From Escherichia coli (GTDB taxonomy: Bacteria; Pseudomonadota; Gammaproteobacteria; Enterobacterales; Enterobacteriaceae): a DNA stretch of 64,000 bases. How positions within the stretch are numbered: the first letter of the stretch is position 1; each line of letters opens with the position of its first letter. A program made the translations under genes and the position numbers. A model generated the notes under the pieces. The model saw only the letters and a program-made list of their open reading frames with translations, was not told where the DNA came from and did not search any database. Shown one piece after another: positions 28,906 to 57,428 of this stretch. Location: the NCBI RefSeq assembly GCF_011045215.1, contig NZ_CP049201.1. One strand, written 5' to 3'.

Positions 28906-30201
<1,296 letters not shown>

Positions 30202-52503: not shown

Positions 52504-53665
<1,162 letters not shown>

Positions 53666-53845
53666 ACCCGACAGAATTATATGAGATTGCAGGAAAACTC
53701 GGTTAACGGAGTGATCGAGTTAACATTGTTAAGTTAAATATTGGTTTCAACTCCGATTTACATGGTTGCTGTGTTGTTAAATCGTACAAAGATGTTATAG
53801 AAACAAAATGTAACATCTCTATGGACACGCACACGGATAACAACT

Positions 53846-55951
53846 ATGAACAAATCAGGGAAATACCTCGTCTGGACAGTGCTCTCTGTAATGGGAGCAT
53901 TTGCTCTGGGATACATTGCTTTAAATCGTGGGGAACAGATCAACGCGCTGTGGATTGTGGTGGCGTCGGTCTGTATCTATCTGATCGCTTACCGTTTTTA
54001 TGGGCTGTATATCGCCAAAAATGTGCTGGCGGTTGACCCGACGCGTATGACGCCAGCGGTGCGCCATAACGACGGGCTGGACTATGTGCCGACGGACAAG
54101 AAAGTGCTGTTCGGTCACCATTTTGCGGCCATTGCCGGAGCAGGTCCGCTGGTGGGGCCGGTGCTGGCGGCGCAAATGGGTTACCTGCCGGGGATGATCT
54201 GGCTGCTCGCCGGGGTGGTTCTCGCCGGTGCGGTGCAGGATTTCATGGTGCTGTTTGTTTCTACGCGCCGTGACGGTCGTTCGCTGGGTGAGCTGGTCAA
54301 AGAAGAGATGGGGCCAACCGCCGGGGTGATCGCGCTGGTGGCCTGCTTTATGATCATGGTCATTATCCTTGCAGTACTGGCGATGATCGTGGTGAAAGCC
54401 CTGACTCATAGCCCGTGGGGAACGTATACCGTTGCGTTCACCATTCCGCTGGCGCTGTTTATGGGAATCTACCTGCGCTATCTGCGTCCGGGGCGTATTG
54501 GTGAAGTGTCGGTCATCGGTCTGGTATTCCTGATTTTCGCCATTATTTCTGGCGGCTGGGTGGCAGAAAGTCCGACCTGGGCACCGTACTTTGACTTTAC
54601 CGGCGTGCAGCTGACCTGGATGCTGGTGGGTTACGGTTTTGTGGCGGCGGTGCTGCCGGTGTGGTTGCTGCTGGCTCCGCGTGACTACCTCTCTACCTTC
54701 CTGAAAATCGGGACGATCGTCGGTCTGGCGGTAGGCATTTTGATTATGCGCCCGACGCTGACCATGCCTGCGCTGACCAAATTTGTCGATGGCACTGGCC
54801 CGGTATGGACCGGTAACCTGTTCCCGTTCCTGTTTATCACCATCGCCTGTGGTGCGGTGTCTGGCTTCCATGCGCTGATCTCTTCCGGTACCACGCCGAA
54901 GATGCTGGCGAACGAAGGGCAGGCGTGCTTTATCGGCTACGGCGGGATGTTGATGGAATCCTTCGTGGCGATTATGGCACTGGTTTCCGCCTGTATCATC
55001 GATCCGGGCGTCTATTTCGCCATGAACAGCCCGATGGCGGTGCTGGCTCCGGCAGGGACGGCGGATGTGGTCGCTTCTGCGGCGCAAGTGGTGAGTAGCT
55101 GGGGCTTTGCGATTACCCCGGATACGCTAAACCAGATTGCCAGCGAAGTGGGTGAACAGTCGATCATTTCCCGTGCGGGCGGTGCGCCGACGTTGGCGGT
55201 GGGGATGGCTTACATCCTGCACGGTGCGCTGGGTGGTATGATGGATGTGGCGTTCTGGTATCACTTCGCCATTCTGTTTGAAGCTCTGTTTATTCTGACG
55301 GCGGTAGATGCGGGTACGCGTGCTGCGCGCTTTATGTTGCAGGATCTGCTGGGCGTGGTTTCTCCGGGCCTGAAACGGACCGATTCACTGCCTGCTAACC
55401 TGCTGGCAACGGCGCTGTGCGTGCTAGCGTGGGGCTACTTCCTGCATCAGGGTGTGGTCGATCCGCTGGGCGGTATTAACACTCTGTGGCCGCTGTTTGG
55501 TATTGCCAACCAGATGCTGGCAGGGATGGCGCTGATGCTCTGTGCCGTGGTGCTGTTCAAAATGAAACGTCAACGTTACGCCTGGGTGGCGCTGGTACCA
55601 ACGGCCTGGCTGCTGATTTGTACCCTGACCGCAGGCTGGCAGAAAGCGTTTAGCCCGGATGCGAAAGTCGGCTTCCTGGCCATTGCTAACAAGTTCCAGG
55701 CAATGATCGACAGCGGCAATATTCCGTCGCAGTATACTGAGTCACAGCTGGCGCAACTGGTGTTCAACAACCGTCTGGATGCCGGGTTAACCATCTTCTT
55801 TATGGTGGTCGTGGTGGTTCTGGCACTGTTCTCGATTAAGACGGCACTGGCGGCATTGAAAGAGCCGAAGCCAACGGCGAAAGAAACGCCGTATGAGCCA
55901 ATGCCGGAAAATGTCGAGGAGATCGTGGCGCAGGCAAAAGGCGCGCACTAA
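53846..55951 (+). CDS. cstA: Carbon starvation protein A (peptide/pyruvate transporter) CstA
   Basis: 701-aa product MNKSGKYLVWTVLSVMGAFALGYIALNRGEQINALWIVVASVCIYLIAYRFYGLYIAKNVLAVD... Confidence 0.95.
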   Translation: MNKSGKYLVWTVLSVMGAFALGYIALNRGEQINALWIVVASVCIYLIAYRFYGLYIAKNVLAVDPTRMTPAVRHNDGLDYVPTDKKVLFGHHFAAIAGAGPLVGPVLAAQMGYLPGMIWLLAGVVLAGAVQDFMVLFVSTRRDGRSLGELVKEEMGPTAGVIALVACFMIMVIILAVLAMIVVKALTHSPWGTYTVAFTIPLALFMGIYLRYLRPGRIGEVSVIGLVFLIFAIISGGWVAESPTWAPYFDFTGVQLTWMLVGYGFVAAVLPVWLLLAPRDYLSTFLKIGTIVGLAVGILIMRPTLTMPALTKFVDGTGPVWTGNLFPFLFITIACGAVSGFHALISSGTTPKMLANEGQACFIGYGGMLMESFVAIMALVSACIIDPGVYFAMNSPMAVLAPAGTADVVASAAQVVSSWGFAITPDTLNQIASEVGEQSIISRAGGAPTLAVGMAYILHGALGGMMDVAFWYHFAILFEALFILTAVDAGTRAARFMLQDLLGVVSPGLKRTDSLPANLLATALCVLAWGYFLHQGVVDPLGGINTLWPLFGIANQMLAGMALMLCAVVLFKMKRQRYAWVALVPTAWLLICTLTAGWQKAFSPDAKVGFLAIANKFQAMIDSGNIPSQYTESQLAQLVFNNRLDAGLTIFFMVVVVVLALFSIKTALAALKEPKPTAKETPYEPMPENVEEIVAQAKGAH

Positions 55952-55994
55952 AGTCAGAGTGAGGGGGGATGTTGGCGAATGTTGGCATAGTGCC

Positions 55995-56100
55995 GAGGGT
56001 TCCCCCTCACCCTAACCCTCTCCCCGATGGGGCGAGGGGACTGACCGAGCGCGTTGATAGCATTTGTAGGCCGGATAAGGCGTTCACGCCGCATCCGGCA
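55995..56100. repeat. REP/BIME-type palindromic elements between cstA and ybdD
   Basis: ccctctccccgatggggcgagggg palindrome followed by tgtaggccggataaggcgttcacgccgcatccggca (canonical REP). Confidence 0.8.
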
Positions 56101-56132
56101 CTCTTTCAGCAACATGGTTAGCGGAGGCCAAG

Positions 56133-56330
56133 ATGTTTGATTCACTGGCAAAAGCCGGAAAATATTTAGGTCAGGCGGCGAAGCTGATGATTGGTATGCC
56201 TGATTACGACAACTATGTCGAACATATGCGGGTTAACCATCCCGATCAAACGCCGATGACCTACGAAGAGTTTTTCCGTGAGCGGCAGGACGCGCGCTAC
56301 GGTGGAAAAGGCGGCGCGCGCTGCTGCTAA
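56133..56330 (+). CDS. ybdD: Small DUF466 protein YbdD (CstA-associated)
   Basis: 65-aa product [65 protein letters not shown]. Confidence 0.9.
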
Positions 56331-56339
56331 ATTTGCACG

Positions 56340-57428
56340 TCAGGCTTTAAACGATTCCACTTTTTCGAACGCTGCACGCAACGTATCTGGTGTCAGCGTG
56401 ACTGGCAGGTAATGAATGGACTCCACCGGGCGCAAGGTGTGGGCAATCACTTTGTCGATCTCCGCCTGATTATTGATATCCACTTCCAGCTCCGCCAGCG
56501 TAGTCGGCAGATGAAAACGCTGATACGCTCCAGTTAATTGCGCCAGAACATCATCCTGACCCAGCAAGGCGCTTTGCACCAGAATTCCGTAGGCGACTTT
56601 GGTGCCGTGAAGAAACTTCTCGGTTTGCGGCAGCACGGTCAGACCGTTATGCACGGCATGAGCCGCCGCCACACGCGTAAAACGATCGCCCAGACCACCG
56701 ACCATCCCACCACCAGCAATAATAGCATCCACCACATCGCAAAATGATTGCGTTAACTGTTGATTTTGCTGATCGCTCAGCGCCTGTTCGCTACTGTTTA
56801 ACAAGACGTCGCGAATGGCCTGCGCATTATTGATCCCCAGTCGCACGGTTAGCGGCAACGTTTCTGGTTGCGGAGCCAGCACCACCGCTTCATACCATTT
56901 CGCCAGCGTGTCACCGATCCCCGCCAGCAGATATTGTTGCGGCGCATTGAGGATAATCTCTGGTTCCACCAGCACCATAAAATTGGCGTCGTCGAAAATC
57001 TCATAATGCAGCGCCTGTCCGGCATCGTTATACCAGACGGAGAGCGGTGTCCAGGCGGCGCAGGTGGCGGCGATCGTCGGAGCGGCAACAAATGGCAGAC
57101 CGAGACGGCGGGCGAGGGCTTTCGCGGTGTCGAGCAGTGCGCCGCCGCCGACGCCAATCACCACGCTGCGATCGTCACCGGACTCAGCCGCCAGTTGCTG
57201 TACATCGCTTTCGCTGCAATGACCACGAAACAAAATATGCTTTGCCCCTGGAAGTCCAAACGCTGGCGGAAGTTTGGTTTGCGCCGCAGCAATGGCGCGT
57301 TTGCCGTAGATCCACACAGCGCGAGAAAGTTGTTCATCAGTGAAAAAATCGTGCAGGTGATTGAAACTTCCTGGATGTGAAAAGTAGTTAGCCGGGCCGA
57401 CGACCACGCGGATAGGATTGTGAGGCAT
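56340..57428 (-). CDS. ybdH: Iron-containing alcohol dehydrogenase family (glycerol dehydrogenase-like) hydroxycarboxylate dehydrogenase YbdH
   Basis: 362-aa product MPHNPIRVVVGPANYFSHPGSFNHLHDFFTDEQLSRAVWIYGKRAIAAAQ... with a GGGALLD-type motif. Confidence 0.9.
   Translation of the reverse strand: MPHNPIRVVVGPANYFSHPGSFNHLHDFFTDEQLSRAVWIYGKRAIAAAQTKLPPAFGLPGAKHILFRGHCSESDVQQLAAESGDDRSVVIGVGGGALLDTAKALARRLGLPFVAAPTIAATCAAWTPLSVWYNDAGQALHYEIFDDANFMVLVEPEIILNAPQQYLLAGIGDTLAKWYEAVVLAPQPETLPLTVRLGINNAQAIRDVLLNSSEQALSDQQNQQLTQSFCDVVDAIIAGGGMVGGLGDRFTRVAAAHAVHNGLTVLPQTEKFLHGTKVAYGILVQSALLGQDDVLAQLTGAYQRFHLPTTLAELEVDINNQAEIDKVIAHTLRPVESIHYLPVTLTPDTLRAAFEKVESFKA

Follow-up and report, generated by a model that had tools for sequence, protein, structure and literature searches.

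Class I promoters, both natural and synthetic ones, reportedly carry a distal CRP site centred at -61.5, -71.5, -82.5 or -92.5. The cstA promoter resembles this group in that it has a single CRP site upstream of the -35 element and on the activating face of the helix, weak hexamers and full crp dependence, but it differs in that its CRP site is adjoined by an ArcA box and by proposed Fis sites. With lac P1, a class I promoter with CRP at -61.5, it shares activation by recruitment and an imperfect palindrome in which one half-site is good and the other weaker. In contrast to lac P1, however, the cstA site is located three helical turns further upstream, and its weaker half is TTAACA and not the lac variant. 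Closest of all described systems is the CRP site published for cstA itself (Schultz and Matin 1991, via Gasperotti 2020; Haycocks et al. 2015). In the strain analyzed here, the 16-mer is identical, the gene context is the same and the position falls into the same range relative to the ATG; we found nothing of substance that sets this strain apart. The CRP site at cstA is already known and is an ordinary one. What we add in this work is its correct placement, a -92.5 class I geometry obtained from two start-site maps and a footprint of conservation across genera.

Our analyses covered a 64,000-nucleotide stretch of Escherichia coli DNA, in the following called the window. Since the last base of entH is 53665 and cstA begins with its ATG at 53846, as given by the open reading frame list and the annotation, the interval 53666-53845 corresponds to the entire entH-cstA intergenic region. 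This region has 180 bp with 36% G+C and is embedded in a gene neighborhood of entE-entB-entA-entH and cstA-ybdD, followed by hcxA on the opposite strand. A 701-bp query across the interval had a match in 5419 of the 5426 complete E. coli genomes, annotated as entH and then cstA. Compared with MG1655, the window contains two intergenic substitutions, at 53680 and 53783, both outside the CRP site. An Rfam search of 53500-56400 returned no family. Furthermore, 53666-53845 contains no intrinsic-terminator-like structure between entH and the promoter of cstA, so that transcripts of the iron-regulated entCEBAH operon could run on into cstA. Downstream, ybdD has its own start at U00096.2 631232 (window 55961), 10 nt past the cstA stop and with a 173-nt 5' UTR, according to Kim 2012. 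Features of the cstA control region are compiled in Table 1.

Table 1. Features of the cstA promoter, leader and coding sequence, in window coordinates
Feature	Coordinates	Strand	Remarks
CRP binding site AGTGATCGAGTTAACA	53710..53725	.	Centre 53717.5; -92.5 from the transcription start, -128.5 from the ATG
Predicted ArcA box AAGTTAAATATTGGTTTCAAC	53731..53751	+	Directly downstream of the CRP site; Park 2013
-35 hexamer TTGTTA	53774..53779	+	4/6 against TTGACA; -36 to -31; placed from the mapped start
-10 hexamer TAGAAA	53798..53803	+	4/6 against TATAAT, without the -7 T; -12 to -7; 18-bp spacer; placed from the mapped start
String quoted in the initial annotation, aaatgtaacatctctatggacacg	53806..53829	+	Promoter -4 to +20; not the CRP site; overlaps the mapped start and ACAAAATGTAACATCTC
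Transcription start of cstA (G)	53810..53810	+	36-nt 5' UTR; TSS-seq and Cappable-seq, mapped via MG1655
ATGGA, CsrA-type GGA motif	53821..53825	+	Leader RNA; read from the sequence; listed primary motif; candidate for one of the footprinted sites
ACGGA, CsrA-type GGA motif	53833..53837	+	Overlaps the Shine-Dalgarno sequence, 9-13 nt before the ATG; conserved in 22 genera
cstA coding sequence	53846..55951	+	701 aa, pyruvate/proton symporter, the regulated gene; open reading frame list and RefSeq annotation of identical DNA
AGGGA, CsrA-type motif	53857..53861	+	Codons 4-6; read from the sequence; listed primary motif; candidate site
CTGGA, CsrA-type secondary motif	53872..53876	+	Early coding region; read from the sequence

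For the CRP search, a symmetrised 16-bp matrix was built from the 106 ChIP-seq sites of Haycocks et al. 2015 (Table 1 therein, PMC4287617); the cstA entry was excluded from the training set, and the whole 64-kb window was then scanned. The initial annotation had proposed a CRP site upstream of cstA that should be recovered by a matrix scan within about 150 bp of the cstA start, and such a match, AGTGATCGAGTTAACA, is indeed present, centred 128.5 bp upstream. It scored 11.6 bits, which is rank 2 of roughly 64000 window positions and above 34% of the training sites, compared with only about 3.0 bits for the second-best 16-mer in the intergenic region. The site can be parsed as aGTGA-tcgagt-TaACA, with 8 of the 10 core positions and the correct 6-bp spacing. 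The top match of the window was found elsewhere, in the ybdG-nfsB region, where TGTGATCGATCTCAAT at 30099-30114 reached 12.4 bits; it is absent from the ChIP-seq list of Haycocks.

A score of 11.6 bits is expected about 2.5 times per 64 kb. AGTGATCGAGTTAACA might be read as a chance match in AT-rich intergenic DNA, with the CRP dependence of cstA being indirect. In agreement with this, dinucleotide shuffles of the 180-bp region reached the score in 343 of 20000 cases (1.7%; region-level p ~0.017), and matches to TGTGA-N6-TCACA with 2 mismatches stayed below chance density in the window, with 12 found in 64 kb against 25 expected from shuffles, so that this consensus search was non-discriminating. 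Sequence statistics alone thus give modest support and are only moderately convincing. Accordingly, the case for the CRP site rests on conservation and on published binding data.

As for binding, Haycocks et al. 2015 (PMC4287617) obtained the identical 16-mer AGTGATCGAGTTAACA as the MEME-called motif under the cstA CRP ChIP-seq peak in ETEC H10407, and in the H10407 genome we confirmed it 136-121 bp before the cstA ATG. The ChIP peak coordinate of cstA is about 200 bp below the RefSeq site coordinate in this strain. The rnk peak, however, shows the same shift (~185-210 bp), and the MEME search was restricted to sequence within 50 bp of peak centres (Haycocks et al. 2015); we hence read the discrepancy as a coordinate offset and not as a displaced peak. 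RefSeq calls the H10407 cstA gene a pseudogene with an internal stop (our locus L084, NC_017633.1 683300-683600), and its promoter keeps the CRP ChIP-seq peak. Among other resources, genomic SELEX lists cstA as a CRP target, and cstA has been used as a reporter gene for CRP; the only coordinate given for cstA in the Crp ChIP-exo supplement falls at the 3' end of the gene, and in the PredCRP supplement a cstA entry is absent.

Genetic data point in the same direction as occupancy in vivo. In the work of Gasperotti 2020, crp deletion abolished the activity of a PcstA-lux fusion, and induction was delayed until glucose was exhausted. In Gasperotti 2020, the CRP site of Schultz and Matin 1991 is assigned to the segment -200 to -120 from the ATG, and AGTGATCGAGTTAACA, at -136 to -121, lies within it. 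We infer that AGTGATCGAGTTAACA mediates the CRP dependence of cstA. In the literature covered, we found no mutation of the cstA site and no footprint with purified CRP.

To follow the site across species, one genome per species was scanned with the CstA N-terminus, which yielded 80 loci. Within 300 bp upstream of cstA, the best match reached at least 8 bits in 62 of these 80 loci, compared with 5 in a 300-bp coding control. The same element, AGTGATC-N4-TTAACA, recurred about 120-135 bp before the ATG in Escherichia, Citrobacter, Salmonella, Klebsiella, Enterobacter, Kosakonia, Buttiauxella and others. Among 26 distinct site variants from about 54 enterobacterial loci, positions 2, 4, 5, 7, 12, 15 and 16 were invariant and positions 8-11 accepted any base. 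Near-invariant half-sites around a variable spacer are thus found across more than 20 enterobacterial genera, and invariant half-sites with a free spacer are the pattern expected of a CRP operator. Within the species, a 30-mer centred on the CRP site was identical in 5130 of the 5426 complete E. coli genomes. A chance match is contradicted by this combination of invariant half-sites and free spacer in more than 20 genera, by the fixed distance to the core promoter described below, and by the ChIP-seq peak with AGTGATCGAGTTAACA together with the genomic SELEX match; we consider it highly improbable.

The transcription start fixes the geometry of the promoter. In the Kim et al. 2012 TSS-seq data, the cstA start is U00096.2 629081, with 43 reads and a UTR of 36 nt, and the promoter string given for cstA ends in GAAACAAAATG. 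Cappable-seq also has its major cstA start at 629081, with a score of 36.0 versus 2-3 for neighboring minor starts. Because both genome-wide maps place the start at 53810 and the CRP site has its centre at 53717.5, the site is centred at -92.5. It is thereby located upstream of the -35 hexamer and does not overlap it, as in class I promoters. In 53750-53790, no 16-mer scored above 1.9 bits, and hence a class II site, i.e., one near -41.5 that overlaps the -35 hexamer, was not found. Also the core promoter is weak in the manner of class I promoters: both hexamers match at four of six positions, a sigma-70 and terminator consensus scan of 53500-54000 gave no match, and activity is lost without crp. 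The empty promoter scan and the crp dependence fit weak hexamers in an activator-dependent promoter.

Sequence conservation follows this layout. In the alignment of 22 genera, TGTTAA at 53775-53780 is invariant and TAGA of the -10 hexamer is invariant or nearly so. The distance between the CRP centre and the start-site block was 90.5-92.5 in 51 of 54 related loci, with leader lengths that varied between 35 and 53 nt. According to Haycocks et al. 2015 (PMC4287617), CRP sites form clusters around -40.5 and -92.5. Given the centre at -92.5, the preserved spacing and this clustering, class I activation is the simplest mechanism. AGTGATCGAGTTAACA is very probably the cAMP-CRP operator of the cstA promoter, centred at -92.5 and activating a weak sigma-70 core in the class I mode, and its position suggests that CRP contacts the C-terminal domain of the RNA polymerase alpha subunit (alpha-CTD).

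An older view of the promoter leads to a different geometry. In Park 2013, the ArcA box is numbered -44 to -24, so that transcription would have to start at U00096.2 629046 (window 53775), in conflict with the mapped start at 53810; this position looks like a stale database start. If transcription began near 53775, AGTGATCGAGTTAACA would still bind CRP, at about -57.5; alternatively, with the site where it is, a second factor might be needed between CRP and the polymerase. For the latter, Gasperotti 2020 regards the distance between site and start as atypical of a sigma-70 promoter and reasons that a further factor is required, as do Schultz and Matin according to the same paper, and a conserved block is present between the CRP site and the -35 hexamer. 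However, in the TSS-seq and in the Cappable-seq data there is no start near 629046 and 629081 is dominant in both, and by eye an acceptable -10 hexamer is absent upstream of 53775. Moreover, a site at -57.5 would be out of phase with the usual class I positions, whereas one at -92.5 is in phase, and in 51 of 54 loci this spacing is preserved to within 1 bp. The remark on an unusual distance is weakened as well, because -92.5, counted from the start found in two maps, is a standard class I distance. We therefore regard both the alternative start and the obligatory second factor as unlikely and keep to class I activation from -92.5.

The initial annotation had looked for the CRP site in a TGT-rich string, aaatgtaacatctctatggacacg, and had suggested a comparison with the mapped promoter. 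Its hypothesis of a CRP site is partly supported: a site does exist in the intergenic interval and lies upstream of the promoter, but the placement was wrong, as the true site is found about 90 bp further upstream and the quoted string covers -4 to +20. Within this string, transcription starts and the conserved initial transcribed sequence follows, and the string also takes in the first CsrA-type GGA motif. Could it, or the neighboring TGTTATAGAAACAAAATGTAACA, nevertheless be the CRP site, bound at or over the start? Pentamers of the TGT and ACA type (TGTTA ... TAACA) do occur in it, and its conservation across genera is very strong. Yet its likeness to TGTGA-N6-TCACA is only loose, as the initial annotation itself had remarked, and we agree, since no overlapping 16-mer exceeded 2.7 bits; this best value is below 104 of the 106 ChIP-derived sites, with only 2 of the 106 scoring that low. 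The pentamers are 13 bp apart and not 6, and the ChIP-seq motif call is the upstream 16-mer and not the quoted element. Furthermore, CRP bound at -4 to +20 would repress and not activate, whereas crp deletion abolishes expression. CRP binding at the start site is thus hardly credible, and we retain AGTGATCGAGTTAACA as the operator.

Around the start, 53805-53821 (ACAAAATGTAACATCTC, -5 to +12) is nearly invariant in 22 genera, which is more than a start site seems to need. A dyad in this region, ATGTTA-N13-TAACAT at 53792-53816, was considered as an operator and dropped because its left arm is conserved only in Escherichia, Citrobacter and Salmonella. Gasperotti 2020 found DeoR about 2-fold enriched on cstA promoter DNA, with DeoR deletion having no effect.

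Several further layers of control are superimposed on the CRP-dependent promoter. The 5' part of the ArcA box contains a conserved A/T block, TAAAT (53734-53738), 19 bp from the CRP site centre, and its AA at 53736-53737 is conserved in 22 of 22 aligned genera. By analogy with the CAP-alphaCTD-DNA structure, the TAAAT block is a candidate for alpha-CTD docking DNA at cstA. The ArcA box itself is listed in the supplement of Park 2013 at U00096.2 629002-629022 with 12.5 bits and a ChIP peak in one of two replicates, and in the arcA mutant cstA was derepressed 21.5-fold (Park 2013). For Fis, the effect of a fis deletion on cstA is an experimental result of Gasperotti 2020. The Fis motif used in that work (GNNNRNNNNNYNNNC), however, occurs at chance density, with 1078 matches versus 1040 expected in 64 kb, and the two predicted Fis sites hence carry no sequence evidence of their own.

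At the RNA level, CsrA footprints on cstA have been described at several sites around the Shine-Dalgarno sequence, and CsrA is described as blocking ribosome access at cstA. In the list of CsrA motifs, CTGGA is classed as a secondary site and credited to the cstA paper.

The CRP and ArcA elements lie side by side. On the opposite strand, the right half-site of the CRP site (TTAACA) gives TGTTAA, the core of the ArcA direct repeat, and the published ArcA box lies right next to this half-site. Among the 26 site variants (loci L002-L077), 22 have A at position 13, where the consensus C never occurs, and 22 have A at position 1. A composite operator might be envisaged, in which selection would favor an intermediate CRP affinity together with an overlap with ArcA (or Fis), although we rate this as a rather doubtful proposition. 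If it were true, anaerobiosis or fast growth would displace CRP and not merely occlude the polymerase.

In Raoultella and one Enterobacter sp. (L013, L014, L015, L018), the block just downstream of the CRP site has the sequence TGTGAGATAAATCCCT or TGTGATGTAAATCCCC, with a score of 9.6-11.3 bits, and is located at about -110.5 relative to the ATG. The primary site scores lower, with 9.4 bits in Raoultella and 10.9 bits in Enterobacter sp. L015, and the block could, judged by its sequence, be a shifted or second CRP site in these genera. For E. coli, a second CRP site of the TGTGATGTAAAT type 18 bp downstream was rejected because no 16-mer there scores above 0.

We may thus picture cstA control as follows. 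When glucose is exhausted and cAMP rises, a CRP dimer would occupy 53710-53725. From -92.5, and on the same face of the helix, it would recruit RNA polymerase via the alpha-CTD in the class I manner, with the alpha domain probably resting on the conserved A/T block that follows the CRP site. ArcA, whose box adjoins the CRP site, would add anaerobic repression, and Fis might add a mild repression in early growth. Finally, CsrA would block translation at the GGA motifs around the Shine-Dalgarno sequence.

Beyond annotation, the finding matters little; it corrects the placement of the CRP site to 53710-53725. What the cross-genus footprint provides is a clean map of cstA control, with the CRP site, an A/T or ArcA block, the -35 and -10 hexamers, the start and a combined CsrA/Shine-Dalgarno motif.
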